Positions 4,634-55,018 of a DNA stretch of 64,000 nt are shown piece by piece (within the stretch, counting starts at the first letter, position 1; each line of letters opens with the position of its first letter). The position numbers and the translations under genes are program-made. Origin of the DNA: a virus (lineage: Duplodnaviria; Caudoviricetes); IMG/VR virus record IMGVR_UViG_3300044991_001466, one strand, 5' to 3'. Below the pieces are notes generated by a model, which did no database searches, was not told the DNA's origin, and saw nothing but the letters and a program-made list of their open reading frames with translations.

Positions 4634-4656
4634 TTATACAATACCAACTTTTGTTG

Positions 4657-4663
4657 TATTTAT
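4657..4663 (+). promoter_or_regulatory. TATTTAT motif, candidate late promoter
   Basis: TTGTATTTAT between the terminator and ATG 4731; overlaps the imperfect hairpin AATAC(C)AAC-TTTT-GTT-GTATT. Confidence 0.45.
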
Positions 4664-4730
4664 GTATAATACCTACATAGGTAATTAACCGTGATATATA
4701 TCACAAAGATTTTTAAGGAAACCCATACAT

Positions 4731-16576: not shown

Positions 16577-17133
16577 CAAAGTATCAAGTTGAAAATCTTG
16601 AAAATATCGCAGATTTATTAGAAAGTATTGATTATTCTAAAGAAGATGCTGAAATTAAATTTTTAACTCTTATTGTGAATATTGAAAGCCTTTTACCAAA
16701 ATCAAATATTTTTGATTACGTGTTTAAGACGGATATCACGAAAGATAAGAAATTAGAATTACAGGAAAATAAAAAACAAAAATTTGTGGTAATAAATGAC
16801 AATGTGGAGTTGTTAAAATCATTACCAAATGATATTGAATTTAAGTGGAGCCAAGTAAATAATAAATACGATATCATAAATAACACATACGATGAAATAA
16901 AAAGTATCGAATCAAACATCCAAGATATTCACACACAAATGAGTGAAATAGCTTCTGAAAACGATGTGTTATATGGTGAGATAGAAAATATTGACTTTGA
17001 AATATCACAAATTGATAACTACATTGAGGAGTCCGAATGGAAAGTAGACTTGGATAGTCACGAAGAAATAACATTTAATAAAATAAAAGAAAAATTAATA
17101 ATCGAAAAAAAGTTTAATTATGGAAATATCTAA
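16555..17133 (+). CDS. Hypothetical acidic coiled-coil protein
   Basis: 192-aa ORF in the operon frame; heptad-like acidic C-terminal half. Confidence 0.55.
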   Translation: MVKNISLTKYQVENLENIADLLESIDYSKEDAEIKFLTLIVNIESLLPKSNIFDYVFKTDITKDKKLELQENKKQKFVVINDNVELLKSLPNDIEFKWSQVNNKYDIINNTYDEIKSIESNIQDIHTQMSEIASENDVLYGEIENIDFEISQIDNYIEESEWKVDLDSHEEITFNKIKEKLIIEKKFNYGNI

Positions 17134-17365
17134 AGAAGAACAACACGAATTAAATAAAAAGGGTGTTGAAGCTATGACAAGAATTGCAACCTCATTGGAG
17201 GGTATAAACGATTGGGTTTATACATTAAATACCGCAGCATGGTCAGAGAGACTAGAGTGGTATTTAAACGAATTTTATCAATTAGCTAAAGCAAAAACTA
17301 TCGGTTCATCCGATAGACCAACAAAAGAATATGAAGAAGAAACTGGCGATAATAGTCCCTTATAG
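17120..17365 (+). CDS. Hypothetical protein
   Basis: 81-aa ORF overlapping both neighbours in operon style. Confidence 0.55.
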   Translation: MEISKEEQHELNKKGVEAMTRIATSLEGINDWVYTLNTAAWSERLEWYLNEFYQLAKAKTIGSSDRPTKEYEEETGDNSPL

Positions 17366-24665: not shown

Positions 24666-25643
24666 ATGTACGATTGGTATAAATGGAAATTAATTGATAA
24701 ATTACAAAAAAATTCCAAAGCAATTATTGGAATTGGAGATAGCTTTACTCAAGGTCAGGGCGCATGTTCTATTGAGTTATGGAAAAAACATAATTGGGAT
24801 TTAGGTGGTGTTGGAATTAAAGATGAAAGAGAGTTACTCACATCTTTTTATGAAAATTCTTGGGTTAATAAATTATGTACAAATCATTTTACTGACCACA
24901 TACCAATTAATTTAGGTATGGTTGGAAGGGGTAATAGAGGTGCGGTAAAAGAACTTTATTTACATCCAGAACTTAATTTAGAATCTATAGAAGAAAAGAT
25001 AGTAATTTTCATGTTAACAGGTATTGAACGATTTGATTTTATACATAAAAATTTACATGAACATATTCATTTTTTAACAATTTGGCCAGACCCAATGGCA
25101 CAAGGAGACCACTCCAAATTATGGACAGAATATTACGAATCAATTTGGAGTGATAAATTTGGTATAATTGAAATGTTATTGAGTATAGCCGAAGCCAAAA
25201 CATGGTGTAAAGCCCATAATGCTAAATTATATTTAATAAGCGCATTTAGACCTGAATATGAAAGACAACCATTTATAAGAGGAATTATGGGTGATATTGA
25301 TGATGAATCAAATTATCTATATAAACAAACTGAATATATAAAAAGTTTAGTTGATATTATTGATTGGAAAAAATTTATTAGACCAAATGGATTTAAGTGT
25401 GTTAGTGATTTTCTTTGTTCATTAGAAAATAGAGATGATTTAATTGAAGAAATTGGGTCTGCAAAGTATTATGAATTTGCTGGAAAAATTAAAAAATTTA
25501 GTCCTAAAGGATATGTTACAAATTGTGCGCATCCATCTCAAAAAGGACACGAAGCAATTGCAAAATCAATATATGAATCAATCATTGAAGATTTAAATAA
25601 AGAAGAAGAAATAATAACAAATAAAACAAAAAATTTAATATAA
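24666..25643 (+). CDS. SGNH/GDSL-like hydrolase or acyltransferase
   Basis: Block I IGIGDSFTQG; block V CAHPSQKGH. Confidence 0.65.
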   Translation: MYDWYKWKLIDKLQKNSKAIIGIGDSFTQGQGACSIELWKKHNWDLGGVGIKDERELLTSFYENSWVNKLCTNHFTDHIPINLGMVGRGNRGAVKELYLHPELNLESIEEKIVIFMLTGIERFDFIHKNLHEHIHFLTIWPDPMAQGDHSKLWTEYYESIWSDKFGIIEMLLSIAEAKTWCKAHNAKLYLISAFRPEYERQPFIRGIMGDIDDESNYLYKQTEYIKSLVDIIDWKKFIRPNGFKCVSDFLCSLENRDDLIEEIGSAKYYEFAGKIKKFSPKGYVTNCAHPSQKGHEAIAKSIYESIIEDLNKEEEIITNKTKNLI

Positions 25644-34774: not shown

Positions 34775-36031
34775 ATGGAAAATAACACAAAAAAACTAAA
34801 TTTAGTTTACGATAAGTGGGATGACAACACAAAAAAACCAACACCAAACGGTAGTTGGGATGCCTCTAACTTAATAAACCATTTCATAAATGATTCATTT
34901 AAATACAATAAATTTGAGTTGAAAAATTGTAAATTAGAAGATGTTTATGAAAATAAAAATGAAAAATACTATTATTTTTTTACACACGGTAGAGAGGAAC
35001 TATCAAAAATTTTTGACAGAGAATTACCATTTGAAATTGATATATTAAACTGTTTAAAAGACTGCCCAAATTTTTATTTTGTTTACATTACAGAACATGA
35101 ACCAGATAATGAAAGTGGGTTCAGAATGTTACGAGAATTTATATCTTATCAAAAATTAAACGAAACACAATTTTACGTCATAAATAATAATGATAAACTT
35201 AATGAATATAAAATAAAATATAATAGTAATATAAATGTGCATTCATTGCAATTCATAGCTCACTCCTCAACAAAAGTTTTAGATTATGTTGGCGGGTGTA
35301 GTTTTATTCCTAACAAAACAGGTAAATTTGCTATGTTATTTAATAAATCCCCGAGATCTCAAAGGGCGTGTTTGTTATGTCTATTAATGAAAAATGGATT
35401 ACTTAACCAAATGAATTGGTCTTTTGTACCAACATATAATGTTAACATAGATGAAAGGTATTTTAAGGATTTATTAAGTGAAAATGATATAAATGACATT
35501 AAATCTGAGATTGATGATTTTTCTAAATTAGAAATTAAAATCAGTGATTTTGAGGAAGAAAAAAATTGGTTTAACAAACACGAACAACCAAATATGGCTG
35601 GGTTACCAAAAATAATGACAATACCAGAGTACCCAAAAAATTATGAAAATTCATATGTTAACATTGTTACCGAATCAATGTATTTTAAAAAGTATAATGT
35701 AATCCACATAACTGAAAAATCATTTAGACCATTTTATTATTATCAAATCCCATTAATATTGGCGTCCGAAGGACATGTTAAAAAAATAAAAGAGAGATAT
35801 GGGTTAGATTTTTTTGACGACATCATTGACCACAGTTATGATGGTATTAAAAATGATAGAGATAGATTATATGCTTTTGTAAAAGAAATTGAAAGAATAC
35901 ATCAAAATAAAGACCAAATCATTGAATTTTATAAAAAAAATCAAGAAAGATTTGAAGATAATAAAAGAAAAATCATTAAAAATTTAGATTTAGTTAATGA
36001 TGAATATGAATTTTTTAAAAACTTAATTTAA
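34775..36031 (+). CDS. 'TEK-family' putative glycosyltransferase, paralogue 4
   Basis: FNKSPRSQR, NIVTES, HITEKSFRPF, GLDFFDDIIDHSYD. Confidence 0.55.
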   Translation: MENNTKKLNLVYDKWDDNTKKPTPNGSWDASNLINHFINDSFKYNKFELKNCKLEDVYENKNEKYYYFFTHGREELSKIFDRELPFEIDILNCLKDCPNFYFVYITEHEPDNESGFRMLREFISYQKLNETQFYVINNNDKLNEYKIKYNSNINVHSLQFIAHSSTKVLDYVGGCSFIPNKTGKFAMLFNKSPRSQRACLLCLLMKNGLLNQMNWSFVPTYNVNIDERYFKDLLSENDINDIKSEIDDFSKLEIKISDFEEEKNWFNKHEQPNMAGLPKIMTIPEYPKNYENSYVNIVTESMYFKKYNVIHITEKSFRPFYYYQIPLILASEGHVKKIKERYGLDFFDDIIDHSYDGIKNDRDRLYAFVKEIERIHQNKDQIIEFYKKNQERFEDNKRKIIKNLDLVNDEYEFFKNLI

Positions 36032-40607: not shown

Positions 40608-41042
40608 ATGATATATTGGTTTACAGGTCAACCTGGTGCAGGAAAAACAACATTAGCTAAACATTTAGTTAATTATTTTGAGAACAACAACGTAATTCAC
40701 GTTGATGGTGACGATTTACGCGATATCTTTCAAAATAAAGACTATTCCGAGGTTGGAAGAAGGAAAAACATCGAAAGGGCTCAGGATATTGCGAGATTTA
40801 TGAGTGAAAAGGGGTTTAACGTAATCGTATCCTTAGTTTCACCTTATAAAGACCAAAGAGACCAATTTAAAGAGAATAACAACGTTACTGAAGTCTATGT
40901 ACATACCACAGATGAAAGAGGTAGAGAAGGGTTTCACGTGTCTAACTATGAAAAACCTACGGACAATTTCGTAGAGATTGACACAAGTAACAGAAAAGAG
41001 GTCGATTCGTTTATTGAATTAACTATTAAATTAAAAATATGA
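40608..41042 (+). CDS. cysC: Adenylyl-sulfate (APS) kinase
   Basis: WFTGQPGAGKTT P-loop, DGDDLR, RRKNIER, VSLVSPY, YEKP. Confidence 0.88.
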   Translation: MIYWFTGQPGAGKTTLAKHLVNYFENNNVIHVDGDDLRDIFQNKDYSEVGRRKNIERAQDIARFMSEKGFNVIVSLVSPYKDQRDQFKENNNVTEVYVHTTDERGREGFHVSNYEKPTDNFVEIDTSNRKEVDSFIELTIKLKI

Positions 41043-41419
41043 GTAAAAAGTACGCAATGTATGTGGGACGTTGGCAAAATTGGCATAAGGGTCACGAATG
41101 GCTCCTTAACCAACAAATAGAGAAGGGGAAAGACGTGTGGGTGGCAATTAGAAATGTACCAACTGACGAAAATAATCCAAAAACCGCACAACAAGTAATG
41201 ATGGATTTGGCTGAAGAACCTTTCTTTAAAGAAAATTCACATAAAATTAATATATCAATTATTCCCGATATTGAGAGTATTAATTATGGTAGAGGAGTAG
41301 GTTATGATGTAATATATCACGAACCACCAACTGAGATAGCAACGATTAGTGGAACGGCAATTAGAACTGGTCACATGACACCTGATGGTGAAATTAAATA
41401 TGATCAAACAAAAGGATAA
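41039..41419 (+). CDS. HxGH nucleotidyltransferase (cytidylyltransferase-like), candidate minimal ATP sulfurylase
   Basis: YVGRWQNWHKGH; ISGTAIR; ATGA-coupled to cysC. Confidence 0.7.
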   Translation: MSKKYAMYVGRWQNWHKGHEWLLNQQIEKGKDVWVAIRNVPTDENNPKTAQQVMMDLAEEPFFKENSHKINISIIPDIESINYGRGVGYDVIYHEPPTEIATISGTAIRTGHMTPDGEIKYDQTKG

Positions 41420-41634
41420 TGATAGTAGAACGTAAACGACACATAGCGAAAACCATCTCATATCGTATTGTAAGTACCTTCATCGGGTTCTTATTAATGT
41501 GGTTGATAAGTGGTTCAATTAAAGTAGGGGCGGCATTTGGGGTGGCAGAATTGATTTATAAACCCATCCAATATTATGTTCACGAAAGAATATGGTATAA
41601 ATGGATAAAATTTGGGTTAAAAGATAAAAAATAA
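41419..41634 (+). CDS. DUF2061-like small membrane protein
   Basis: RHIAKTISYRIVST...YYVHERIWY. Confidence 0.75.
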   Translation: MIVERKRHIAKTISYRIVSTFIGFLLMWLISGSIKVGAAFGVAELIYKPIQYYVHERIWYKWIKFGLKDKK

Positions 41635-41635
41635 G

Positions 41636-41642
41636 TATTTAT
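41636..41642 (+). promoter_or_regulatory. TATTTAT motif, candidate late promoter
   Basis: AAGTATTTAT 18 nt upstream of ATG 41661. Confidence 0.5.
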
Positions 41643-41660
41643 ATATAAAACAAGGAAATT

Positions 41661-43148
41661 ATGAGAACAGTATTAATAGGTTCGGACTTTATGTACGATA
41701 AAGATGGTAATTTAAAACCCATTGAAATAAACACTGCAGTAGGATGGGATGGACTTCAGAAGATTGAGGATAATATAGATTGTTTGGATTTAACGGGTTT
41801 ATACCAATTTATTGAAACTAAAGGATTTACATCCGTACATTATGTGGGCGATATACCATATATAAACGAAACGTTAGAAACTTATTATAGTGGAAGTTCA
41901 ATCACATATGAATATCATTTGGTTAATAAATTAGCCATCACAGTGCCATTTATTGAAGATAATGATGAAACATTAATTATTAGAAGTTCATATGACACAA
42001 CAGCATTGGTAGATGATACATATTGTAAAGATAAGGTTAATTTTTTAAATTTAATTAAAGATTCTTCATTCGGTTCTCAATTTGCTTATTTAGATGAATC
42101 AAACCAATTAGTGTCAAACATTACAACAATTAATGATAATGGGGAACACCCAAACTTTATTTTAAAGGCGAGATATCCTTCTTACGATAAAGAAGTTTAT
42201 CCTAAATTTTTTAAGGTATCAACACAAGAAGAATTGAATACAATTTTAGAGAATGTAACATCGGATTACTTCTTAATGGAGAATTATTGTAACACCACCA
42301 ATAATTTTGAAGGACATGTAAAAGTTATAAGAAGTTTAAATATATTGTATCCACCAACATTAGAATCAATACAAATTGGTCAATACACTAGAATTAATCA
42401 AAATATAATTTTTTCTAATGTAGAATATGATTCAATAACTCATATGTTAAATTCGGAATATAGAGAGAGTTATATAACATTAACAACTATTAAAGGAGTA
42501 CCCAAATTATTAGACACAGATTTAGTAGAAATGCCAGATGGTACGTTTAAAACTGCATTAGATTTAAACGTTGGGGATGTAATCAAAACAATTGATATAC
42601 CAAATCCAAATGGTGTGGATAATCAATCATATCTTGCAAATTTTGAAATAACATACGAAACACTTGTATCAGGTACAACTTATTCAACAAATAAAATTGT
42701 CAATAAAAAAAGAGTAAATTTATTAACATATATTAATCGATTAACTTTTGATGATAATAGTACATGGGAAGATACGTCAATTTCTTCTTATTTAATTGAA
42801 AGAGATAATGTTATACAATTTGAAGAAATACATGGTATAAAAATGGGAGATGTTGTTTTATTATTAGATACAACAGAGGGATTGGTAGATTTTATTAGAA
42901 AAAATGTTGTAGAAAATGTAGAGACTAAAACAATATTTTCCGGTTGGTTTATTACAGTAGAAAATGCTCATCTATTTTTAACTAAAACATCATCTACAAA
43001 TAATGAATCTTTTGTTTCCATTGAACATAATGCTGGTGAAGCTTGTTATTATTGCTCCGGCGGGTCTCAATCTGCTTACTGCCCTAAATCGGCACCATAT
43101 TGTGGAGCATATGGATATTGTGTATATTCTCCTGAATATTGTCCATAA
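41661..43148 (+). CDS. Circularly permuted ATP-grasp-like domain + Hint domain + C-terminal Cys/Tyr-rich peptide
   Basis: N-terminal GSDFMYDKDGNLKPIEINT (D...ExN), FILKARYP, LMENY. Hint-like KLLDTDLVEMPDGTFKTALDLNVGDVI ... IKMGDVV ... FITVENAHLFL ... SIEHN, followed by AGEACYYC...YCP. Confidence 0.7.
   Translation: MRTVLIGSDFMYDKDGNLKPIEINTAVGWDGLQKIEDNIDCLDLTGLYQFIETKGFTSVHYVGDIPYINETLETYYSGSSITYEYHLVNKLAITVPFIEDNDETLIIRSSYDTTALVDDTYCKDKVNFLNLIKDSSFGSQFAYLDESNQLVSNITTINDNGEHPNFILKARYPSYDKEVYPKFFKVSTQEELNTILENVTSDYFLMENYCNTTNNFEGHVKVIRSLNILYPPTLESIQIGQYTRINQNIIFSNVEYDSITHMLNSEYRESYITLTTIKGVPKLLDTDLVEMPDGTFKTALDLNVGDVIKTIDIPNPNGVDNQSYLANFEITYETLVSGTTYSTNKIVNKKRVNLLTYINRLTFDDNSTWEDTSISSYLIERDNVIQFEEIHGIKMGDVVLLLDTTEGLVDFIRKNVVENVETKTIFSGWFITVENAHLFLTKTSSTNNESFVSIEHNAGEACYYCSGGSQSAYCPKSAPYCGAYGYCVYSPEYCP
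42504..43031 (+). other. Hint (intein-like) domain, about 176 aa; Cys1 absent, terminal His-Asn present
   Basis: Block A pattern with Lys at the Cys1 position, a second GD repeat, block F xVE..H.F and block G HN; the +1 residue is Ala. Confidence 0.65.
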
Positions 43149-43155
43149 ATTATTG

Positions 43156-43190
43156 TAAAATAAAATAAAATAAAATAAAATAAAATAAAA
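43156..43190 (+). repeat. Perfect (TAAAA)7 microsatellite
   Basis: Seven exact copies; the last A is the A of ATG 43190. Confidence 0.95.
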
Positions 43191-43279
43191 TGGCAAAAAT
43201 TATAACAAATACCGAAATTAATACGTTAAATACAACCCTAACAACTATTGGTAATTTAATAGTAACCGCAAATAGTTAG
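43190..43279 (+). CDS. 29-aa Thr/Asn/Ile-rich smORF (not in the ORF track)
   Basis: MAKIITNTEINTLNTTLTTIGNLIVTANS*, with an A-rich leader and occupying most of the intergenic gap. Confidence 0.5.
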   Translation: MAKIITNTEINTLNTTLTTIGNLIVTANS

Positions 43280-43301: not shown

Positions 43302-43601
43302 ATGAAATTAGATTTTAAAGAAATATCAACGGCTTGGTATAATAAACTTATACATTCTAATGAATTAAAAAAATTAGCTGATGATAGATTTGATATTTGT
43401 TTAGAATGTCCGTCTAAAAAAGAAATTTTCAAAGGTAAACAATGGTCTCTCAGGTGTGGAGAATGTGGGTGCCCTTTAGCAGGTAAAGTATATACATCTA
43501 ATACATATTTGGATAAAAACGGATCATGTCCATTAGAAAAGTGGAAAGAAGTTGAGATTGAATATTTAAAAAATTTTAAAAAAATGAAAACTTTTATATA
43601 A
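43302..43601 (+). CDS. Small Cys-rich metal-binding protein (DUF6171-like)
   Basis: RFDICLECP...CGECGCPL...SCPLEKW. Confidence 0.7.
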   Translation: MKLDFKEISTAWYNKLIHSNELKKLADDRFDICLECPSKKEIFKGKQWSLRCGECGCPLAGKVYTSNTYLDKNGSCPLEKWKEVEIEYLKNFKKMKTFI

Positions 43602-43602
43602 A

Positions 43603-44286
43603 GTGTCTTATTTAATTAATAATGAACTTATTTGGGTTTCTATTCCAAAATGTGCAAGTTACTCTATTGAACGAGCACTTAGAAATTCAAAACTAAAATT
43701 AGATACCTACGACCCAAATATTATTATAGACGAGCACCTTCACGTCCCATTAACTGAGTGTTTATCACTATGGGGAAACAAAGAAACTGTTTGTATAACC
43801 AGAGATTATGTGCATAGATGGATGAGCTCTTTAAATTTTATTTGGGATAAAATAGAATTTGAAAGTGATTATACCCTTATTCGTAAATGGGAAGATGTTG
43901 ATAATGAATTTTTATATAAAATGTTTGATACCAAGTTTCTCAATGATTTACATTCATTTGACGGCAATGATTTAGAAACAAAAAATTGTTTTTTAAAATT
44001 AGTAAAAGAAAAATACGACATTTTAAAAAAAATGCCATTTATAATGATAACCTTAGTTTCCCCAAACTTTTTTAAATCCAATAGAAAATGTACATATGAG
44101 TTTGACATTAAAGAAATAGATAAATTTGTTGATTTTATTGAAGATAGATTTGGTGAAAGATTAATTATAGAGAGCACTAACCAATCTACAAAAAGACCAA
44201 ATAAAATTATAATAAATGATGAATTAAAATCATTTATTTTAGAAAATTTTGAAAATAGATTTAAAAAAAGAAATCAATTAATATAG
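43603..44286 (+). CDS. Sulfotransferase-like protein (Sulfotransfer_2-like)
   Basis: 5'-PSB WVSIPKCASYSI; 3'-PB ITRDYVHRWMS; terminal xxN.S. Confidence 0.6.
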   Translation: MSYLINNELIWVSIPKCASYSIERALRNSKLKLDTYDPNIIIDEHLHVPLTECLSLWGNKETVCITRDYVHRWMSSLNFIWDKIEFESDYTLIRKWEDVDNEFLYKMFDTKFLNDLHSFDGNDLETKNCFLKLVKEKYDILKKMPFIMITLVSPNFFKSNRKCTYEFDIKEIDKFVDFIEDRFGERLIIESTNQSTKRPNKIIINDELKSFILENFENRFKKRNQLI

Positions 44287-44289
44287 TAT

Positions 44290-44763
44290 ATGCAAATATA
44301 TAAAAACATATTAACAAATGATTTTTGTGATATTTTAATAGAAAAAATTAAGAATGAATGTGTATTAAGTGAATCTCATAAAAAAGGGTGGTATGTTTGG
44401 TTAATTTGGGGACAACAACCCAGTCAACCACTAAGTAGAGAAAAGTGGAATGAAGAAATCTATAATATGGTAACTGATGAGTTAAATAGATGTAATTTTC
44501 CTAAACATAAAACAATGTGGCTACAAATGACAGAATATAAAGATGGTAGGTGGTTACGAAGACATGTAGATGGTGCAGGAAATAAAACAATAATAATTTT
44601 GTTATCCAATGAATTTGTGGGTGGAGATACATATATAAATGATAGTGTTGTAAATTTAAAAAAGGGCGATGGTGTTATATTTGATGGGGGTTATCAATAT
44701 CATGAAGTAACACCAGTAACAGAAGGAACACGATACGCTTTAAATTTTTGGTTATATAAATAA
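44290..44763 (+). CDS. 2OG-Fe(II) oxygenase (prolyl-4-hydroxylase-like)
   Basis: YKDGRWLRRHVD...ILLSNEFVGGDT...YHEVTPVTEGTRYALNFW. Confidence 0.85.
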   Translation: MQIYKNILTNDFCDILIEKIKNECVLSESHKKGWYVWLIWGQQPSQPLSREKWNEEIYNMVTDELNRCNFPKHKTMWLQMTEYKDGRWLRRHVDGAGNKTIIILLSNEFVGGDTYINDSVVNLKKGDGVIFDGGYQYHEVTPVTEGTRYALNFWLYK

Positions 44764-44772
44764 CAATATAAT

Positions 44773-45816
44773 ATGGTAGATTTAAAGAATTATGTTTGTA
44801 GTGTTCCTTTTAATTCATTAGAAATACATAATAATGTTTGTTTTGTTTGTTGTCCATCTTGGTTACCAAATAAGATTGAAATATCAGAAGTACCACTAAA
44901 GGATATGTGGAATAGTGAACCAATCGTTGATATTAGAAATTCTATATTAGATGGTTCATTTAAATATTGTAATAAAGAACTTTGTCCTTATTTAAGTAAA
45001 TTAATAAACTATGGTGTGACATCTGGTCCAGTCAGACTGAAATCAGATTCAAATATTAATAATCCAATTATTGAAAATAATACACCCGATTATTTGGTAA
45101 TGAATTTTGATAGAACTTGTAATTACAAATGTCCATCATGTAGAGTTGATTTAATTGTTGAAAATAGTGAAGGGATAAAAAGAGTTGAAAAAACAATTGA
45201 AGATATTGATAAATATTATTCAGCAAATGTAAAAACTTTATACATAACAGGTTCTGGAGACCCATTTGTTTCAGTCGGGTTTAGAAATTATTTAAGAAAT
45301 TTTAATCCAAAAAAATATCCAAATTTAAAATCAATACACTTACATACCAATGCCTCAATGTGGAATAAAGAAATGTGGGATAGTATGCCAAATATTCACA
45401 AATATGTCGGTACCTGTGAAATCAGTATAGATGCAGGAACAAAAGACACATATGAAAATAAAACAAGATTAGGTGGTAATTGGGAAAATTTATTGAGTAA
45501 TTTAAAATTTATTAGTACCATACCGAATATTAATGTAAAAACTTCCTTTGTTGTACAAGATAGTAACTATACTGAAATGGAAACATTTTATAATTTAATG
45601 TATTCTATTTTTGGTAAAAAAGTAAATGTGTTTTTTGGTAAAATAACAAATTGGGGTACATTTTCAGAGGGTGAATTCAAATTTAAACAGGTATGGGATA
45701 CCGAACACCCAGAACACCAATTATTTAAAAAAGAATTTAATAAGGTATGGAAAAACACAAATCTATTTCATAATCTATATGAGTTTATTGAGAGCACTAA
45801 TAAAACATTGATATAA
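44773..45816 (+). CDS. Radical SAM protein with N-terminal twitch/SPASM-like Cys motif
   Basis: CSVPF...VCCPSW...CNKELCP; CNYKCPSC; ITGSGDPF; ISIDAG. Confidence 0.88.
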   Translation: MVDLKNYVCSVPFNSLEIHNNVCFVCCPSWLPNKIEISEVPLKDMWNSEPIVDIRNSILDGSFKYCNKELCPYLSKLINYGVTSGPVRLKSDSNINNPIIENNTPDYLVMNFDRTCNYKCPSCRVDLIVENSEGIKRVEKTIEDIDKYYSANVKTLYITGSGDPFVSVGFRNYLRNFNPKKYPNLKSIHLHTNASMWNKEMWDSMPNIHKYVGTCEISIDAGTKDTYENKTRLGGNWENLLSNLKFISTIPNINVKTSFVVQDSNYTEMETFYNLMYSIFGKKVNVFFGKITNWGTFSEGEFKFKQVWDTEHPEHQLFKKEFNKVWKNTNLFHNLYEFIESTNKTLI

Positions 45817-45830
45817 TTTAACATAATAAA

Positions 45831-46400
45831 ATGGTTATTACAATAATCGCCGAACCAAGAAGTGGGTCAACAAATTTAGCAGATTATTTTAAATCAAATA
45901 AAGATTTTACTATTTTACAAGAACCATTAAATAAATATGGAAAATCGTATCAAAAAAATAATCCAATTAATAAATGGACTTATAATACAAAACACTTATT
46001 AATTAAGGAAATATATGACCCAAATAAAAACTTAAAAGAATTAATACAATTTTCAGATAAAATAATTATTCTTTATAGAGAAAATAAAAATGAACAATTA
46101 GAATCTTGGTTAGTTGCAAAGGTAACCAATAATTGGCGGGGTAAATGGGTAAATAGTAAAATTCGTATACCTAACAAAGAATTAAAAATTCAGTTTTTTA
46201 ATAAAATGGTTAATGAGTTTGAAATAGAATATAGATTAAATAATGATATGTTTAAAATATCATATGAAGAACTTTATTACAAGAATGGTTTTGAAAAAAT
46301 AGTGAATTATCTTAATATTGATAGTGTTAAGAATATTGATTTTCCATATGGTCAAAAATATAGGTTGGACAAAATAGAAATAAATAAAACTTTAATATGA
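45831..46400 (+). CDS. Stf0-like sulfotransferase
   Basis: IIAEPRSGSTNL, ILQEP, LYRENK..Q..SW, ISYEEL. Confidence 0.65.
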   Translation: MVITIIAEPRSGSTNLADYFKSNKDFTILQEPLNKYGKSYQKNNPINKWTYNTKHLLIKEIYDPNKNLKELIQFSDKIIILYRENKNEQLESWLVAKVTNNWRGKWVNSKIRIPNKELKIQFFNKMVNEFEIEYRLNNDMFKISYEELYYKNGFEKIVNYLNIDSVKNIDFPYGQKYRLDKIEINKTLI

Positions 46401-47101
46401 TAAGGATATATTACCACATATATGTCATTGATGGCGTTGAATCTATAATAAATGAACAACTGACATTAATAAAAAAATACATTAATCAACCATATTCATT
46501 AACTATTGGCATCTCAGTATCAGAAAATAATAATTCAGTAGACGATATGATTAAATTAATTTATGGGTATGATTCAAAAATTATAATCGGTGATACTAAA
46601 TTAATGGGTAACGAGTTTATAACATTAAATTTAATAGAAAGAGATAAATCATCATTTGATGACACTGACTACATTTTGTATTTACACACAAAGGGAGCTT
46701 CTAAACAAATGAATTCCGAATCTATCCGATGGAGAAATGTAATGCAATTACATAATATTCAATATATTGATAACGTATTTGGAATTTTGGATAATGAAGT
46801 TTTTAACACATATGGTTTTTTATTAGAAGTAGTAAGTAACCCTACAAATATAATGTACTCTGGTAATTTTTGGTGGATGACCGGACAATACGCTAAAACA
46901 ATAGACATAAGTAATGTTGATATTACAAATAGATGTAATGCAGAGTTACAATATATTCAAATGGGAACGGATTGGAAACCCTATTCAATAATTAGAAAGG
47001 GAGATAATTGGAAACCTTATTCATACTTTATTAAGGACAAAGGGGGGGGGATAGAAAAACGTAATATTAACACAAAATTAAGTTTTAATAAATTAATATA
47101 A
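46397..47101 (+). CDS. Hypothetical glycosyltransferase-like protein (YLHTKG/GNFWW family)
   Basis: ILYLHTKGAS, WR..M, YSGNFWW, R..AE motifs. Confidence 0.5.
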   Translation: MIRIYYHIYVIDGVESIINEQLTLIKKYINQPYSLTIGISVSENNNSVDDMIKLIYGYDSKIIIGDTKLMGNEFITLNLIERDKSSFDDTDYILYLHTKGASKQMNSESIRWRNVMQLHNIQYIDNVFGILDNEVFNTYGFLLEVVSNPTNIMYSGNFWWMTGQYAKTIDISNVDITNRCNAELQYIQMGTDWKPYSIIRKGDNWKPYSYFIKDKGGGIEKRNINTKLSFNKLI

Positions 47102-47111
47102 TTATGAATAT

Positions 47112-47915
47112 ATGGACCCGTTAAAATATTGGACGTTAGATGGATTTGAAATATCATCATTTAAGTTTAATTTAAATGAAAGAAAGGGAAAGACGTATAA
47201 AACATGCGGTTCCGATGGTACTGGCTTGTGTAGCTATGCCTATAATGAATTAGGATTTAGGGGAGATAGTGTAAAAAAAGAGGGATTTAAAGTAATGTCA
47301 TTAGGTTGTTCTCATACCGAAGGTGTCGGTGTTAATTACAATGATATGTGGTCAACACGATTTACAAATCGTATACCCAATGGTGTTAATATGAATTTTG
47401 GTACAGGTGGTAGAAGTAATGATTTTATTACTAGATGTCTATTAACATATTACGATGTGGTAAAACCTGATTTGGTATTAATAATGTATACATCACCATT
47501 AAGAAGAGAAATATACACAAAAGATGGTAATATAGAACCATTTATTCCCGCTCGTTCATGGGGATATATGGGTGAAACTGAAGACGGTAAACAAACACAA
47601 AGTTATTTAACTGAATTACAAAATGATAATGAAGATTTAATTAATTGGTATAAAAATCATCAACTAATAAAATTATTCTTAGAAACTAAAAATTGTAATT
47701 GGATTTGGAATGGGTCGTTTGGTATACCAAGTGAATTTAAAGAGCCTAACAGATTTGATGGTGAATATCAAATTTTTATCGATAAGGGTGTTGAAGGGGG
47801 ACATGCTGGCCCCGAACAAAATAAAAGTTATGCAAATAAATTATACGACTTCATAACTGAAAATTTCCCAAATTACATAAATGTTTTATCAAAAAATAAA
47901 CAAAGTTTGATTTGA
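47112..47915 (+). CDS. SGNH/GDSL-like protein
   Basis: YNELGFRG; SLGCSHTEGVG; NFGTGGRSND; GGHAGP. Confidence 0.6.
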   Translation: MDPLKYWTLDGFEISSFKFNLNERKGKTYKTCGSDGTGLCSYAYNELGFRGDSVKKEGFKVMSLGCSHTEGVGVNYNDMWSTRFTNRIPNGVNMNFGTGGRSNDFITRCLLTYYDVVKPDLVLIMYTSPLRREIYTKDGNIEPFIPARSWGYMGETEDGKQTQSYLTELQNDNEDLINWYKNHQLIKLFLETKNCNWIWNGSFGIPSEFKEPNRFDGEYQIFIDKGVEGGHAGPEQNKSYANKLYDFITENFPNYINVLSKNKQSLI

Positions 47916-50683: not shown

Positions 50684-51342
50684 GTACATTAAATAATTTG
50701 GCTAAAATACACGGAACGGATAAGTCTTCAGATAATCACAATTATTGTGTTAAATATGAAAAGTATTTACCATTTAACAGATACGATAAGTTAAACATAT
50801 TGGAAATTGGTGTCTTAGATGGTAAATCACTATTAACTTGGAAGGATTATTTTTATCGTTCTAATATTTTAGGTGTTGACATTAATCCTGATTGTAAAAA
50901 ATATGAAGAACCACGAATCTCTATCGAAATTGGTTCGCAGGATGATGGTAAATTCTTATCAAGAACTTGGCAACAATATGGCCCATTTGATATGATATTA
51001 GATGATGGGTCACATATGAATGAACACGTAATTTATTCATTTGAACATTTATTCGGTTCAGTTAAATCGGGTGGTGTGTACGTAATTGAGGACGTTGCAA
51101 CCTCATACTTCCCTTGGTACGGTGGGGGTTTAAATGACCCTAAGAGTATGATGGAATACTTCAAGAAATTGACTGACGACATTAACTTTAGAGGTGTAGA
51201 GAACTTAGATGACCAAGATGCGGTGTGGGATAGGCGTGAAGATAAATTAATACCCTATTCAAGTAAAGTACAACCTGATTGTAGAACTGATATAGAATCA
51301 ATAACCTTCCTTAACGGAATTATAATAATAACAAAAAGATAA
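50680..51342 (+). CDS. Class I SAM methyltransferase (sugar O-methyltransferase, MycE/ElmM-like)
   Basis: ATGA-coupled start at 50680; HGTDK, ILEIGV, GSQDD, GPFDMILDDGSH, GGVYVIED. Confidence 0.8.
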   Translation: MSTLNNLAKIHGTDKSSDNHNYCVKYEKYLPFNRYDKLNILEIGVLDGKSLLTWKDYFYRSNILGVDINPDCKKYEEPRISIEIGSQDDGKFLSRTWQQYGPFDMILDDGSHMNEHVIYSFEHLFGSVKSGGVYVIEDVATSYFPWYGGGLNDPKSMMEYFKKLTDDINFRGVENLDDQDAVWDRREDKLIPYSSKVQPDCRTDIESITFLNGIIIITKR

Positions 51343-53471
51343 TGGGATATACACAATTTACTGAAGATGTGTTTGTGGTCGATTGCTGGCCAGATAATAA
51401 AGATAAAGAAAACGTTTTAAAGAAATTACTAACAAGTTTAAAGGTTTATAATTGTCCAATTATATTATGTGGACATTATCCTGTAAATCCTGATATTCAA
51501 AAATTGGCAGATTATTACATTTACGATTCAAATAACGATGTTTTATTGGAGAAAGATTTTGAAGAGTATGGAGTTAATAGTGATAGATGGACTGACATGG
51601 GAAACTATAAAATAACCAATAAAGTTGAGTTTCATCATGATTATGCCATTTGGTTAACAATGAAAAACGCATTTAATTTGGTTAAACAATTAGGAAAAAA
51701 ATATATTCATTTCTTGGAATACGATAACTTACCCGACGAAACTCAATATCGTCAGGCGTTTATGGAATATATGAGAAGTAACGATGCGGTTGTGTACGAA
51801 TATTCGGAAGGCTCAACCAAAGAAGAAAACCCATACAGTGCAACCTATCTATTTTCAATAAAAACTGATATCGCAATCGAATTAGTAAGTAAAATTAACA
51901 GTAAAGAAGAATACTTTAAAAATAAACCAAATAGATGGCAGTTAGAAAAGGTATTTTATCAAACATTAAAAAGTATCACTAATAATATTTTTGTAAGTAA
52001 GTACATCGCTAACGATAACGAACTAAACATATTTGCCGCATGGAATAGAAATGGGATTACAAAAAATGGTGCTCGTTTACAAACCTATTTAGGTGTGGAC
52101 GATTTTAATCAACTATATGTTCATTTCATTTCAGGATTTTCAGAGAAACCCGCTAACTTAGATTATTTGGTTGAAATTAATTACGGGAGTTTTAAAAAAT
52201 TCTTAACGGTTAAGAAGGGACAATACATTTTAGAGAAAATTGATGAATATCGTCAAGGACAATCTTTTCAAGTTTTCTATAGAGGAGTTGAAATTTTTAA
52301 CCAAGAATTAACAAATGATGTTGAGGAATTTAAAAGAAAAAATAAAGTAATCAAACGTAATAGTGGAATTAATAATAAGAAAAATATCATAGCACATTTT
52401 GTTGATGGTCCATTTTTAGAAATTAAAGAAGACGGTGATAATTTATACAACGTACAATTCATAAATAAGAAAAACAATAAAATTGAATTTGAAATTAATT
52501 TAAAGAGTAATCATTGGTGTAGGTCTGCAAAAAAATACTACGTTGATTGGTTAGTTAAGATTAAAGGAATTGATAATGATTTTTATTATGAATACGGTTT
52601 AGACTTTAAAGGTAAACAGGTGATGATTTGTTTTGAATCAAAATCTTTGGGAGATAGTTTAGCTTGGGTACCATATGTTGAGAAGTTTAGAAAAGAAAAT
52701 AATTGTGAGGTTGTTTGTTCAACGTTCCATAATGATTTGTTTAAATCAGAATATCCTAATATTAAATTTGTGTTACCCGGCACTTCAGTAGATGACGTAT
52801 ATGCCTTATATCGTTTAGGTATATTTTATGATGATAAACGTAATATTGATTACACCAAACATATTACCGACCCTAAAAAAGAACCACTATTAAAAGTTGC
52901 GTCTGATATTTTAGGTTTATCTTATGAAGAATTGAGACCCAAGTTAAAAAAATTAGGTAAAAAGAAACAAAAAAGAGTTTGTATTGGAATACATTCAACC
53001 GCTCAATGTAAATATTGGAATAATCCAACTGGTTGGCAAGATGTGGTTAACTACCTTAAAAATGAAGGATATGAGGTTAGACTATTATCAAAAGAGGAAA
53101 ATGGTTACATGGGGAACACACACCCAACAGGAATTACACTTCAACCAACAGGTTCAATAGATAAATTAATAAAAACTTTGCAGGAGTCTGAATTATTTAT
53201 AGGTATAAGTAGTGGTTTAAGTTGGTTATCATGGGCAACTGAAACCCCAACTGTTATTATTTCTGGTTTCACCGACGTTGATTTAGAACCAATAGATGGT
53301 GTAACAAGAATAATTAATAAAAATGTTTGTAATAGTTGTTGGTCAAATCACGATTTTGATCCTGGAGATTGGAATTGGTGTCCCGAATTAAAAAACACGG
53401 AAAGACAGTTTGAATGTTCAAAATCCATCACATCAACACAAGTCATAGATGAAATTAAAAAATTAATATAA
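51342..53471 (+). CDS. GT-like N-terminal domain + TibC/Aah-like (BAHT) protein O-glycosyltransferase
   Basis: HFVDGPFLEI, SKSLGDSLAW, CKYWNN..GW, FIGISSGLSWLSWA, and the Cys motif CNSCW...WCP...RQFECSKSIT as in TibC. Confidence 0.82.
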   Translation: MGYTQFTEDVFVVDCWPDNKDKENVLKKLLTSLKVYNCPIILCGHYPVNPDIQKLADYYIYDSNNDVLLEKDFEEYGVNSDRWTDMGNYKITNKVEFHHDYAIWLTMKNAFNLVKQLGKKYIHFLEYDNLPDETQYRQAFMEYMRSNDAVVYEYSEGSTKEENPYSATYLFSIKTDIAIELVSKINSKEEYFKNKPNRWQLEKVFYQTLKSITNNIFVSKYIANDNELNIFAAWNRNGITKNGARLQTYLGVDDFNQLYVHFISGFSEKPANLDYLVEINYGSFKKFLTVKKGQYILEKIDEYRQGQSFQVFYRGVEIFNQELTNDVEEFKRKNKVIKRNSGINNKKNIIAHFVDGPFLEIKEDGDNLYNVQFINKKNNKIEFEINLKSNHWCRSAKKYYVDWLVKIKGIDNDFYYEYGLDFKGKQVMICFESKSLGDSLAWVPYVEKFRKENNCEVVCSTFHNDLFKSEYPNIKFVLPGTSVDDVYALYRLGIFYDDKRNIDYTKHITDPKKEPLLKVASDILGLSYEELRPKLKKLGKKKQKRVCIGIHSTAQCKYWNNPTGWQDVVNYLKNEGYEVRLLSKEENGYMGNTHPTGITLQPTGSIDKLIKTLQESELFIGISSGLSWLSWATETPTVIISGFTDVDLEPIDGVTRIINKNVCNSCWSNHDFDPGDWNWCPELKNTERQFECSKSITSTQVIDEIKKLI

Positions 53472-53536: not shown

Positions 53537-55018
53537 ATGAAAATATTTGATCCGATTATAACTGGTTCGGCAACAATTACGGGAGATTTAACCGTAAATG
53601 GTACAATAAACGCGACTATTAGTGGTACTACCTCAAATGCATTAACCATAAACACAACTGGTTCTGCACGTTTGGCTACCACAGGTAGTAACTTATTTGT
53701 TGGAAATCAAACTGTAAGTGGTTCTATTGTCCCTTCAGTTAATGATGTCTACGATTTAGGTAGTTTAACATATCAATGGAGAGATTTATATCTTTCTTCA
53801 GGTTCATTATATATTGACGGAACCCAAGTACTATCCTCAAATGCTACAGAGGTAATTTTCTCAACAGATACTGGTCAATCGATTAAATTGAATGAAGCGG
53901 GTACTGATACTATTACATTACAAACGGTAGATGGTAATATTGAATTAAAATCATCAGGTGGAGGTGATATAACATTGGACCCAACTGCCGGTTTAATTAC
54001 CGTTAAGGGTACATTACAAATGCAAGATGGTAATAAAATCACAAGTTCGGGAGCAAGTAAAGTTGTTGTTGGAAATGATTTAGAAGTTACAGGGTCTATA
54101 CGTACCACTGGAACATTGGTTATGAATGGAGTTTCATTCAGTGCAATGACGTCAGGTACTTCAGGTTCAAGTGGTTCTTCAGGAACTTCGGGATCTAATG
54201 GTTCTTCAGGAACATCAGGTTCTTCAGGTTCTTCAGGAACATCAGGTTCAAGTGGGTCATCTGGAACATCAGGTTCTAGTGGTTCATCAGGTTCTAACGG
54301 TTCATCAGGTACTTCAGGTTCAAGTGGGTCATCTGGAACCTCAGGTTCTTCAGGTTCTTCAGGAACATCAGGTTCATCAGGTTCTAATGGTTCTTCAGGA
54401 TCATCAGGCACTTCAGGTTCAAGTGGTTCATCAGGAACATCAGGTTCATCAGGTTCTAACGGTTCATCAGGAACATCAGGTTCATCAGGTTCTAACGGTT
54501 CATCAGGTTCTAATGGTTCTTCAGGTTCTTCAGGTACAACTACAATTACAAACGCGTCTGCTGACCGTGTAATGACAAGTGAAGGTGGCGTTACCTTAAA
54601 TGGTGAAGCAAGTTTAACATTTAACGGAACAACTCTATATGTGGCTGGAGCATTAGGTGTGGGTACATCAACACCAGTAACCACAGGTTTAATTAGAGCA
54701 ACAAATGACGTTATAGCCTACTATGGTTCTGATGAAAGATTAAAAGAAAATATTCAATCAATTACAGGTTCTTTAGATATATTAAAACAAATCAACGGTT
54801 ATTATTTCGATTGGAAAGAAATGCCGGGTATACATGAGAACGAAGGTCACGATATTGGGGTAATAGCACAAGAAATTAACTCAGTTTTACCTGAAATTGT
54901 AACTACAAGAGACAATGGTTATATGGCTGTTAAATACGAAAAATTAGTTGCTTTGTTAATTCAAACAAACAAAGAATTGTTAATTCGTGTTGAGGCTTTA
55001 GAATCTAAAATAAAATAG
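53537..55018 (+). CDS. Tail fibre protein with SSG repeat and peptidase S74-like chaperone (paralogue of 4731)
   Basis: Shares the IVPSVN..YDLGS...LYLSSGSLYIDG...GNKITSSGA.KVV.GND.EVTGSIRT module. C-terminus SDERLKENI...IGVIAQEI...LPEIV...VKYEKLVALLI. Confidence 0.85.
   Translation: MKIFDPIITGSATITGDLTVNGTINATISGTTSNALTINTTGSARLATTGSNLFVGNQTVSGSIVPSVNDVYDLGSLTYQWRDLYLSSGSLYIDGTQVLSSNATEVIFSTDTGQSIKLNEAGTDTITLQTVDGNIELKSSGGGDITLDPTAGLITVKGTLQMQDGNKITSSGASKVVVGNDLEVTGSIRTTGTLVMNGVSFSAMTSGTSGSSGSSGTSGSNGSSGTSGSSGSSGTSGSSGSSGTSGSSGSSGSNGSSGTSGSSGSSGTSGSSGSSGTSGSSGSNGSSGSSGTSGSSGSSGTSGSSGSNGSSGTSGSSGSNGSSGSNGSSGSSGTTTITNASADRVMTSEGGVTLNGEASLTFNGTTLYVAGALGVGTSTPVTTGLIRATNDVIAYYGSDERLKENIQSITGSLDILKQINGYYFDWKEMPGIHENEGHDIGVIAQEINSVLPEIVTTRDNGYMAVKYEKLVALLIQTNKELLIRVEALESKIK
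54149..54535 (+). repeat. Collagen-like SSG repeat, about 43 triplets
   Basis: TSGTSGSSGSSGTSGSNG... encoded by the same codon mosaic as the other blocks. Confidence 0.95.

Follow-up and report, generated by a model that had tools for sequence, protein, structure and literature searches.

A phage protein that joins a predicted permuted ATP-grasp ligase, a Hint domain and a variable Cys-rich tail

The window, a 64,000-nucleotide stretch of DNA, derives from an uncultured lake-water phage, and the genes of the locus described below lie on its plus strand. At positions 41661–43148 (stop codon included) an open frame encodes a 495-residue protein in which three parts are fused in a single chain: an ATP-grasp ligase, a Hint domain and a six-Cys tail, confirming the architecture proposed in a preliminary description of this DNA. 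A Shine-Dalgarno-like AAGGA (41652–41656) stands before the ATG and a TATTTAT motif, a possible shared promoter element, is located 25 nt upstream of the start (41636–41642). The motif had been thought to be shared with the fibre genes, and of the three collagen-like fibre genes two (972 and 53537) do have it at −27. It occurs within 60 nt upstream of seven gene starts compared to about 1.1 expected under a uniform spread that ignores the A+T richness of intergenic DNA, while the longer GTATTTATA is not above chance in the window (3 seen versus 3.3 expected).

The fusion gene is genuine and subject to selection. It has 747 homologues (clusters at 90% identity, E ≤ 1e-3), nearly all of about 495 residues, and a library of representatives at 50% identity contains 277 family members. 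The family is restricted to large uncultured phages from lakes and seas. The nearest ESM Atlas clusters are 96–100% viruses (Uroviricota), a viral-contig collection supplies 80 loci of the ligase-Hint family, and a scan of 185,579 cellular genomes with close alignment gave one match, on a contig of 248 kb from a permissively binned MAG; judged by this distribution of sequences, the family is viral. The window protein has no match in Pfam, PHROGs or PDB sequences, and tblastn detected none in 50,697 deposited phage genomes. One 182-nt metatranscriptome contig matches the fusion gene, which is no proof of transcription because DNA carry-over is possible.

Residues 1–280 (41661–42500) form a predicted circularly permuted ATP-grasp amide ligase domain. 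In a full-length model built from 25 close sequences the N-domain was poor (pLDDT 63.7); modeled alone with AF2 from a 94-sequence alignment, it reached a pLDDT of 94.5. The best Foldseek matches of this model in the PDB are eukaryotic glutathione synthetases, YjfC/YgiC and GspS, with an E value of 1.3e-6 to 2HGS, 5OEU, 7UK6 and 2IO7. VIA-align gave Z scores of 8.5–7.5 over 200–220 residues with the alignment starting at residue 1; for classical ATP-grasps it begins only around residue 55. The model thus places the domain in the permuted GS/GspS branch of the ATP-grasp superfamily, whose three-part α+β fold holds ATP between two sheets and in which the D...E-x-N strands come first, and bears out the fold assignment made earlier from the letters of the sequence. 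The conservation pattern is consistent with an active enzyme: among 108 diverse representatives E22, N24, R108, D118 and R224 are invariant, K169 is kept in 107 and D9 in 106, and D9, E22, N24 and K169 are the putative Mg/ATP residues. Family-level sequence matches are sparse. Pfam has no entry that matches this part of the window protein, sub-threshold Pfam matches among the 94 members are to RimK (four) and ATPgrasp_ST (two), and the PDB sequence-profile matches are only five chains, of biotin-, pyruvate- and 2-oxoglutarate-carboxylase-type ATP-grasps, at the D...E-x-N motif. ATP-grasps of the glutathione-synthetase/GspS/YgiC type use ATP to activate the C-terminal carboxylate of a peptide, which is then joined to an amine.

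The middle domain (residues 282–457; 42504–43031) adopts a Hint β-fold in the model, as had been anticipated. Searching the PDB with this part using Foldseek gave 55 matches at E ≤ 1e-3, and the 50 listed are all inteins, BIL domains or hedgehog. The TM scores by target go up to 0.72 and are about 0.7 to the BIL2, hedgehog and DnaB mini-intein structures, and ESM Atlas neighbours are annotated with PT-HINT or Intein_splicing. Since the window protein lacks a Pfam, PHROGs or PDB sequence match, Hint membership rests on the fold and the His-Asn end; PT-HINT (PF07591) gives no hit to the window protein at its Pfam gathering score, and a distant homologue, P0203, scores 21.3 bits against the cutoff of 27.7.

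The terminal His-Asn (43026–43031), the predicted site of Asn cyclisation and cleavage, is conserved, with H456 present in 102 and N457 in 105 of the 108 representatives. The other catalytic elements are missing or variable. Position 1, which is Cys, Ser or Thr in inteins, is Lys in the window protein (K282), and the family has H (30 of 108), L (19), K (18), I (8), T (5) and S (5) there. No conserved His equivalent to that of the block B T-x-x-H motif is found within residues 362–377 of the representatives, where conservation falls on D371 (88/108). At +1 the window protein has Ala rather than a Cys, Ser or Thr nucleophile, and this position varies across 147 family members (Y, L, A, F, G, S, D, E and others, including P and V). 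The Lys in place of Cys1, the missing block-B His and the terminal HN followed by Ala had all been read correctly in the preliminary description. The block-F His that it reported is likewise present (H437) but is not a family feature, as 51 of the 108 have Asp and 36 have His at this position. With Lys at position 1 and no block-B His, only the C-terminal reaction would be possible; as position 1 provides no thioester-forming Cys, we assign the domain a putative C-terminal half-reaction only and do not file it as a BIL. The proposal of C-terminal-only cleavage agrees with this conservation pattern, and in the alignments homology breaks exactly at the His-Asn: distant homologues align from residue 1 to about 460 and diverge completely beyond that point.

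Directly after ...SIEHN the protein ends in a 38-residue tail (residues 458–495; 43032–43148 including the stop, coding 43032–43145), the predicted released cargo. Translation confirmed its six Cys and eight Tyr; the Tyr richness is not shared by the family. Within the clade of the tail C462, C474, K476 and C487 are invariant. All 56 unique tails have an even Cys count and at least one Lys, and 12 of them contain no Asp or Glu at all. Where the domains are 80–90% identical, non-Cys identity in the tail is 42%, in keeping with the earlier expectation that the domains and the His-Asn would be conserved and that the segment behind them would be Cys-rich and evolve much faster. In close pairs the tails are raised in both pN and pS relative to the domains. 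The dN/dS comparison of tail and domains is limited to few usable close pairs, as synonymous sites are saturated in most pairs; because of this saturation, and because pS is raised along with pN, we do not claim positive selection. The sequences indicate faster divergence of the tail than of the domains, and probable cassette exchange. In the full-length model the tail has a pLDDT below 40, and a tail profile run against the PDB and Pfam gave as its only resemblances a conotoxin and a carboxypeptidase inhibitor, two small peptides rich in disulfides, at E ~0.5, which is not significant; we withhold the name knottin.

The tail is one of several kinds of cargo carried by relatives of the window protein, which include other Cys-rich tails, BACON repeats (in two long cargos), domains of no recognised family, and a Cys peptide with another Hint domain, a canonical one, behind it (nine members above Pfam thresholds and a tenth below). 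Cargos extend up to 1,240 residues. Six of the 108 representatives have almost no cargo (2–7 residues), and for those six release is not the whole story. Searches of the cargos turned up no toxin family. Because BACON repeats replace the tail in some relatives, we consider a binding or adhesion module, as judged by cargo sequences, to be more likely than an enzyme.

Behind the fusion stop codon, an (AAAAT)n repeat (43157–43189) leads to a tiny gene of 29 codons (43190–43279) that starts 41 nt downstream of the fusion gene and encodes a predicted helper subunit of the ATP-grasp domain. A tiny gene is located 10–60 nt behind the fusion gene in 55 of 56 non-redundant loci; the peptides share the consensus ...T-x-I-G-x-L-I-[VI]-x-x-N-S-stop, in which the C-terminal ...N-S is invariant. 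When the tiny peptide was modeled with the fusion protein, the predicted complex gave an ipSAE of 0.84 versus 0.00 for the best of three controls, a comparison that falls outside the calibration of the tool as the partner has fewer than 30 residues and custom alignments were used. Among solved complexes 58 of 80 attain this mark, and among mismatched pairs 2 of 110. The runs agreed in at least 98% of contacts with a partner pLDDT of at least 88. All predicted contacts of the peptide fall inside the ATP-grasp domain, and the residues contacted alternate along their strands with D9 and R224. The alternation suggests that the peptide packs against the sheet on the side opposite the active site, which in turn would make it subunit-like rather than a substrate.

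Next downstream is a 99-residue Cys protein (43302–43601) with the pattern CxxC...CxxCxC...C that ends in a K-T-F-I tag. It belongs to a family of small zinc-ribbon-like proteins of about 95 residues, weakly DUF6171-like (weak matches in 8 of 27 members), with a homologue in 46 of 55 loci, adjoining also in divergent loci. The core of fusion gene, tiny gene and Cys protein is kept even at about 30% identity and with other cargo. The locus had been described as a self-contained unit; since the tiny gene and the Cys protein accompany the fusion gene almost everywhere, it is not, and the tag-bearing enzymes that follow also contradict this view.

These enzymes are a 227-residue sulfotransferase-like protein (43603–44286; motif reading, no Pfam match) ending in N-Q-L-I, with a homologue in 36 of 55 loci and the tag in 37/37 homologues; a radical SAM enzyme (44773–45816; Pfam PF04055) ending in K-T-L-I, tagged in 29/29 homologues; and a 189-residue sulfotransferase-like protein (45831–46400; motif reading), which also ends in K-T-L-I and is tagged in 19/19. 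An untagged 2OG-Fe(II) oxygenase (44290–44763; Pfam PF13640) has homologues in 36 of 55 loci, and a 267-residue protein of no assigned family (47112–47915) ends in Q-S-L-I and has homologues in 29 of 55 loci, with the tag in 22 of 28. Upstream of the fusion gene, a cassette identified with Pfam comprises an APS kinase, a 126-residue HxGH-motif protein and a DUF2061 membrane protein (40608–41634); its homologues occur in 22–28 of 55 loci, none carries the tag, and the cassette could be a source of PAPS for the sulfotransferase-like enzymes. The ...K-T-L-I C-terminal tag is thus common to several neighbouring enzyme families. Its frequency by protein family is 0% or near 100%, and its codons and stops vary synonymously (TTA/TTG, ATA/ATT, TAA/TAG/TGA). 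In view of this family-wise occurrence and synonymous variation we rejected the reading of the tag as a promoter, terminator or other DNA motif.

We propose a conserved phage module made up of a ligase, a C-cleaving Hint domain, a swappable cargo, a helper and tailoring factors, with the fusion protein as its large subunit; we assign this explanation a probability of about 55%, and it partly upholds the overall interpretation of the preliminary description. In this module residues 1–280 would be an active permuted ATP-grasp amide ligase of the glutathione-synthetase/GspS/YgiC type that binds the 29-residue peptide as a small helical subunit or leader-like activator. The Hint domain, having lost the machinery for N-terminal cleavage and splicing but retained the His-Asn, would cut the N457|A458 bond through cyclisation of Asn457, thereby freeing the C-terminal cargo with a new α-amine. 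In the window protein the cargo would be a 38-residue peptide with three predicted disulfides, one version of a swappable, fast-evolving module. The ligase may then form an amide bond on or with the freed cargo, and the Cys protein and the tagged sulfotransferase-like and radical SAM enzymes may serve as adaptor and tailoring factors.

The retained His-Asn bears directly on whether the Hint domain cuts at all. The protein could instead be a multidomain ligase, with the Hint domain as a degenerate structural spacer and the tail as a permanently attached small domain that forms disulfides or binds metal. Decay is indeed seen at position 1 and in blocks B and F, the protein has no family-level sequence match, almost tail-less members exist, and six or eight Cys could equally bind metal. 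Nevertheless, His-Asn persists in 102–105 of the 108 representatives while other Hint motifs have drifted, homology and cargo exchange stop exactly behind the Asn, and the model resembles self-processing Hint folds (BIL2, hedgehog and DnaB mini-intein) with a TM of 0.7 by target; hence we find a non-cleaving domain doubtful. The same hypervariable segment behind a Hint domain recalls polymorphic toxins, where a HINT autopeptidase directly precedes the C-terminal toxin domain (PMC3482391), and the cargo might be a released antimicrobial or anti-grazer peptide or toxin with a small neighbour as its immunity protein. The raised synonymous divergence of the tails in close pairs, consistent with cassette exchange, and the non-significant resemblance (E ~0.5) of the tail profile to conotoxin and carboxypeptidase inhibitor would fit such a role. 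Immunity genes, however, should co-vary with the toxin, and both small neighbours are conserved; moreover, the recognisable cargos are BACON binding repeats rather than toxin domains, the N-terminal part is an enzyme rather than a trafficking domain and PT-HINT (PF07591) does not match the window protein. We rejected this assignment as highly improbable.

Cleavage followed by proximity of the new α-amine to the ligase raises the further idea of a natural "cut-and-ligate" system, in which the Hint cut would serve to provide that amine and the ligase, held in shape by its 29-residue subunit, would join it to a carboxylate. Candidates for the latter are the ...N-S end of the tiny peptide, a ...K-T-L-I end of the tagged enzymes or Cys protein, and the C-terminus of the cargo itself (head-to-tail cyclisation). 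This branch of ATP-grasps activates peptide C-terminal carboxylates, ligase and Hint are constant across the family while the cargo varies, and the tiny-peptide ends and the tags are conserved. The Cys peptide that nine relatives (a tenth below the Pfam threshold) carry between a C-cleaving Hint and a Cys1 Hint points the same way, as engineers use such an arrangement to excise or cyclise peptides. PMC12568646 (citing pmid 36745518) describes YgiC/YjfC as peptidylpolyamine synthetases. No ligated product is known, however, the +1 residue that would provide the acceptor amine is highly variable, in the predicted pose the C-terminus of the tiny peptide does not lie among the catalytic residues, cyclisation is implausible for cargos of up to 1,240 residues, and the tags may be mere docking motifs, leaving this a speculative and quite unlikely scheme. 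If true, it would be ATP-driven protein-ligation chemistry not known from phages: use of the cargo's own C-terminus would give a cyclic, knotted peptide, and use of the K-T-L-I tag or ...N-S end would graft a hypervariable binding module post-translationally onto several proteins. We give almost no credence to a graspetide-like RiPP pathway, with the ATP-grasp building side-chain lactam or lactone rings in the tail before release. An ATP-grasp does adjoin a short peptide, K476 is invariant in the clade of the tail, and the helical peptide predicted on the ligase away from its active site resembles leader binding by microviridin ligases; yet Asp and Glu are absent altogether from 12 of the 56 tails, the permuted GS/GspS branch that includes the ligase is not that of classical graspetide ligases, and some cargos are large domains, on which grounds this reading was rejected.

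The preferred reading, a ligase with a C-cleaving Hint domain and swappable cargo, combines parts that are known singly, namely ATP-grasp ligases, Hint autoprocessing domains and small disulfide-rich peptides. We found no paper that describes the ligase-Hint-Cys-peptide fusion and none on its company of a 25–30-residue helper peptide, a Cys protein and C-terminally tagged enzymes. With the known permuted ligases (eukaryotic glutathione synthetase, E. coli GspS, YgiC/YjfC, trypanothione synthetase and fungal Cp1B) the phage domain shares topology and Mg/ATP residues, but it is much smaller (~280 residues), has a sequence identity of about 10–15% to them and is fused to a Hint domain and paired with a 29-residue peptide. 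Graspetides (microviridin-type RiPPs) likewise bring together an ATP-grasp, a short ribosomal peptide and a helical segment on the ligase. Their ligases are of another ATP-grasp branch, the Asp/Glu plus Thr/Ser/Lys ring pattern is missing in the phage tails, and the phage peptide is fused behind a self-cleaving domain rather than to a leader. Should the ligase act on the freed amine, disulfide-rich peptides would be ligated or cyclised by a natural route that is new and of interest to peptide engineers.

Among the best structural matches of the phage Hint domain are type A BIL domains (6Y75/6TMM, 2LWY), which have a C-terminal His-Asn and mostly cleave (PMC4031507). Both share the Hint fold, the His-Asn end and the lack of a +1 nucleophile; type A BILs, however, retain Cys1 and the N-terminal thioester, in place of which the phage domain has Lys (H, L, K or I family-wide) and no block-B His. 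The hedgehog C-terminal domain (1AT0, 6TYY) is also a structural match and likewise frees a signalling or binding module from a precursor, but there the cut is at the Hint N-terminus via a Cys1 thioester, cholesterol is added and the released module is N-terminal, whereas the phage protein is predicted to be cut at the C-terminal end of its Hint domain, behind which the cargo lies. The pretoxin-HINT modules (PF07591; Zhang et al. 2012, PMC3482391) likewise place Hint upstream of a swapped C-terminal module thought to be freed by autoproteolysis. Those modules are bacterial, with secretion or trafficking domains as heads and toxin domains as cargos, in contrast to the viral phage family, which PF07591 does not match at the window protein, whose head is an ATP-grasp enzyme, whose cargos are Cys-rich mini-peptides or BACON repeats and in which a co-varying immunity gene was not found. 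If the phage Hint domain releases its cargo, phages would be applying to fast-evolving mini-proteins the trick of polymorphic toxins, in which an exchangeable tail is linked to an unchanging head by a joint that cuts itself.

The open reading frame at 41661–43148 (+ strand) is a real gene and encodes a 495-aa protein in which a ligase-like domain is followed by a Hint domain and a Cys-rich tail. Homology searches recovered 747 cluster representatives at E ≤ 1e-3, nearly all of about 495 aa, and 277 relatives emerged when 1.84 billion representatives were searched exhaustively. None of the 747 carries a Pfam domain or name, and the protein itself has no match in Pfam, PHROGs or PDB sequences. 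The motifs quoted in the preliminary description are all present in the translated frame; position 1 of the Hint domain is Lys282, the +1 residue is Ala, and the tail (residues 458–495; nt 43032–43145), with six Cys and eight Tyr, follows ...S-I-E-H-N.

Residues 1–285, folded with a 94-sequence alignment (A2), gave a pLDDT of 94.5. The top Foldseek matches of this N-domain are human, yeast, plant and nematode glutathione synthetases, E. coli YjfC/YgiC, GspS and trypanothione synthetase (E values of 1e-6 to 1e-4), and an exhaustive structural search placed the same set on top, with Z scores of 8.5–7.5 over 200–220 residues and alignments starting at model residue 1. Eukaryotic glutathione synthetases and GspS are classic permuted ATP-grasps. 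In contrast, alignments to the classical ATP-grasps TTLL, LysX/ArgX, RimK and Ddl begin only at about residue 55, as a circular permutation predicts. The fold search and the alignment from residue 1 support the earlier assignment of a circularly permuted ATP-grasp, and the domain adds a new, minimal member to the permuted glutathione synthetase/GspS/YgiC branch, in which YgiC and YjfC are peptidylpolyamine synthetases (PMC12568646). When the A2 profile was compared with the PDB, only five chains matched, all biotin-, pyruvate- or 2-oxoglutarate-carboxylase-type ATP-grasps, weakly and exactly on D9...E22-x-N24. Across 108 representatives, pairwise at most about 50% identical, Glu22, Asn24, Arg108, Asp118 and Arg224 are kept in all, Lys169 in 107 and Asp9 in 106, and because of this conservation the ligase looks catalytically intact.

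In the full-length AlphaFold2 model, residues 280–456 have a pLDDT of about 75–88. With a cutoff of E ≤ 1e-3 the model matched 55 chains in the PDB. Each of the 50 listed is an intein, a BIL domain or a hedgehog autoprocessing domain; among them are the TvoVMA intein (6.5e-8) and, with TM scores by target of 0.70–0.72, Tetrahymena BIL2 (6Y75) and hedgehog (6TYY). In the ESM Atlas, the protein's neighbours come from phages and carry PT-HINT or Intein_splicing, and these neighbours together with the structural matches confirm the Hint fold proposed for the middle domain. His456 and Asn457 are retained in 102 and 105 of the 108 representatives, respectively. Position 1 varies (His in 30, Leu in 19, Lys in 18, Ile in 8, with others in the remainder), the block-F position (437) is Asp in 51 and His in 36, no conserved block-B His is present among the 108, and the +1 residue may be Y, L, A, F, G, S, D, E or others. 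The Hint domain has thus been reduced to the residues required for C-terminal Asn cyclisation, which are intact alongside the catalytic residues of the ligase.

Homologues at 30–38% identity align from residue 1 to about 458–465, beyond which they are wholly different; the His-Asn junction thus appears to be a boundary of both recombination and function. We sorted the regions after His-Asn into classes in the 108 representatives. Most are tails of 21–68 aa with an even number of Cys, which lies between 4 and 12 in each tail listed. Several representatives carry unknown domains of 140–540 aa, and five carry cargos of 700–1,240 aa, with BACON repeats in both of the two that were scanned. Six (P0233, P0239, P0216, P0250, P0247 and P0254) have almost no cargo, with 2–7 residues after the Hint domain, and may either be decayed or use the ligase-Hint pair in a role without need of cargo. 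In roughly ten, a Cys peptide of about 27–30 aa, or nothing, precedes a second Hint domain with a canonical Cys1, which in most such members ends in His-Asn plus two to five residues including Lys-Lys. The second Hint scores above Pfam thresholds in nine members (Intein_splicing, 38–52 bits) and looks like a BIL-type element inserted into the tail. Such relatives include P0225, P0208, P0245, P0191, P0170, P0251, P0175, P0270, P0268 and the phage locus L084; the tails of their single-Hint cousins end in ...G-G-x-x-K.

Tail statistics were computed on 56 unique proteins from IMG/VR loci. By direct count every tail contains 6, 8 or 10 Cys, and these even numbers suggest that the tails are disulfide-bonded. 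Each has at least one Lys, twelve lack both Asp and Glu, and the overall composition is 18% Cys, 11% Gly, 11% Pro, 10% Ser and 8% Tyr. Non-Cys tail identity is 42% where the two domains are 80–90% identical and 26% at 70–80% domain identity, in keeping with a tail that evolves far faster than the conserved domains. Within the clade of the window protein, Cys462, Cys474, Lys476 and Cys487 are invariant, in a C-P-K core. Synonymous sites are saturated in most pairs; in the few close pairs, tail pS is raised as well as pN, which points to cassette exchange. In two lake metagenomes, related-strain contigs at 85% likeness span most of the gene except 42940–43170. Tail profile searches gave nothing significant, the non-significant resemblances being to two small disulfide-rich peptides, a conotoxin and a carboxypeptidase inhibitor.

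The protein had been described as a self-contained unit, which was not borne out, as it belongs to a conserved three-gene core. A tiny gene (43190–43279, + strand; 24–30 codons in the family) begins 10–60 nt past the stop codon in 55 of 56 non-redundant loci, and a small Cys protein (43302–43601, + strand; 85–108 aa in the family) has a homologue in 46 of 55. In the window, AAAAT is repeated about six and a half times (43157–43189) between the stop codon of the ligase-Hint gene and the start of the tiny gene. The tiny peptide follows the consensus ...T-x-I-G-x-L-I-[VI]-x-x-N-S-stop, with Gly21 and Leu23 invariant and Asn28-Ser29 nearly so. The Cys protein, which weakly resembles DUF6171, has Trp12, Ala26, Arg29, Cys36, Cys52, Cys55, Cys57, Lys62, Cys76 and Trp81 invariant; in divergent loci its gene comes right behind the tiny gene, whereas in three loci it is found right upstream of the ligase-Hint gene. 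It also adjoins a BACON-cargo member (L082), a 997-aa member (L083) and the member on a 248-kb contig (L085). A short peptide gene adjoins the ligase-Hint gene in L082, L085 and the double-Hint locus L084, a short contig with no Cys protein on it; none was found in L083. One 211-kb IMG/VR contig (3300042892_005961; L042 and L065) encodes two ligase-Hint paralogues with differing tails, and a separate tiny gene and Cys protein accompany each of them.

When the full protein was co-folded with the 29-aa peptide, using alignments A5 and A4 respectively, the score was 0.84 compared to 0.00 for the best of three controls. Of 80 solved complexes 58 attain this mark, as do 2 of 110 mismatched pairs, although custom alignments were used here and a partner of fewer than 30 residues lies outside this calibration. 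The runs share at least 98% of contacts with a partner pLDDT of at least 88, and the model supports a predicted binding of the peptide. Predicted contacts are confined to the ATP-grasp domain, at residues 6, 8, 10, 18, 20, 23, 116–137 and 223–243. Residues 6/8/10 and 223/225/227/229 alternate along strands with Asp9 and Arg224, so the peptide is read as a helix packed against the rear face of the C-domain sheet, and we infer that it serves as a subunit or a leader-like activator and not as a substrate.

Several neighbouring proteins share a C-terminal tag. Leu-Ile endings occur in 8 of 66 window ORFs (about 0.6 expected) and in 218 of 1,170 ORFs across 56 loci (about 9 expected), with Leu-Leu in a further 99; the preferred form is [KN]-[TSK]-L-I, and both its codons and the stop codons show synonymous variation. 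Only certain protein families carry the tag: it is present in homologues of the Cys protein (42/43), the 227-aa (37/37) and 189-aa (19/19) sulfotransferase-like proteins, the radical SAM protein (29/29) and a 267-aa protein (22/28), and absent from those of the carbamoyltransferase (0/22), APS kinase (0/22), 126-aa HxGH-motif protein (0/28), DUF2061 protein (0/27) and ligase-Hint protein (0/55). Tagged window proteins, which are sulfotransferase-like, radical SAM, GT9-like, unknown or the small Cys protein, lie in 24666–25643, 34775–36031, 43302–47915 and 51342–53471. Upstream, a tightly spaced cassette (40608–41634) encodes the APS kinase, the HxGH-motif protein and the DUF2061 membrane protein, with homologues in 22–28 of 55 related loci.

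The locus recurs in lake water, with over 20 metagenome runs containing it, its closest ESM Atlas clusters belong to Uroviricota, and tail-sheath genes adjoin distant members. The only match in 185,579 cellular genomes is L085 (CBFHJJ010000001.1, 248 kb), a contig assigned to a 'permissive' bin of a Flavobacteriaceae MAG; it is probably a jumbo phage placed in the wrong bin and hints weakly at a Bacteroidota host. A single metatranscriptome contig of 182 nt matches 41726–41907, which is not proof of transcription. The window also encodes many glycan enzymes and collagen-like fibre proteins with Peptidase_S74 domains; three are large collagen-repeat proteins (972–7877 and 53537–55018), two with the Peptidase_S74 chaperone end, and prolyl-hydroxylase-like 2OG oxygenases lie near their genes. 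An Asp/Arg hydroxylase is found downstream of the ligase-Hint gene in the related locus L001. Tandem glycosyltransferase-7/Laminin_G_3 fusion proteins occur in the window (15170–19987) and near the module in the very distant phages L082 and L083, followed in L083 by another radical SAM gene.

Collectively, these data suggest a mechanism in which Asn457 would cyclise and free the cargo as a disulfide-bonded binding module, on or with which the ligase and its small subunit would form an amide. Tailoring of the product would fall to the tagged radical SAM and sulfotransferase-like enzymes together with the APS-kinase cassette upstream, a possible source of PAPS, with the tags acting as putative docking or substrate motifs. 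Full-text literature searches found no description of the ATP-grasp-Hint architecture, no paper combining ATP-grasp with intein-like and none on DUF6171; two comparative-genomics papers that surfaced deal, by their titles, with other topics. Type A BIL domains end in His-Asn, have no +1 nucleophile and mostly cleave (PMC4031507). The protein falls outside both type A BIL domains and polymorphic toxins because position 1, block B, the +1 residue and a PF07591 match were tested and none agreed, but its mode, as judged from sequence and fold, would resemble the C-terminal half-reaction of the former and the Hint joint of the latter (PMC3482391).
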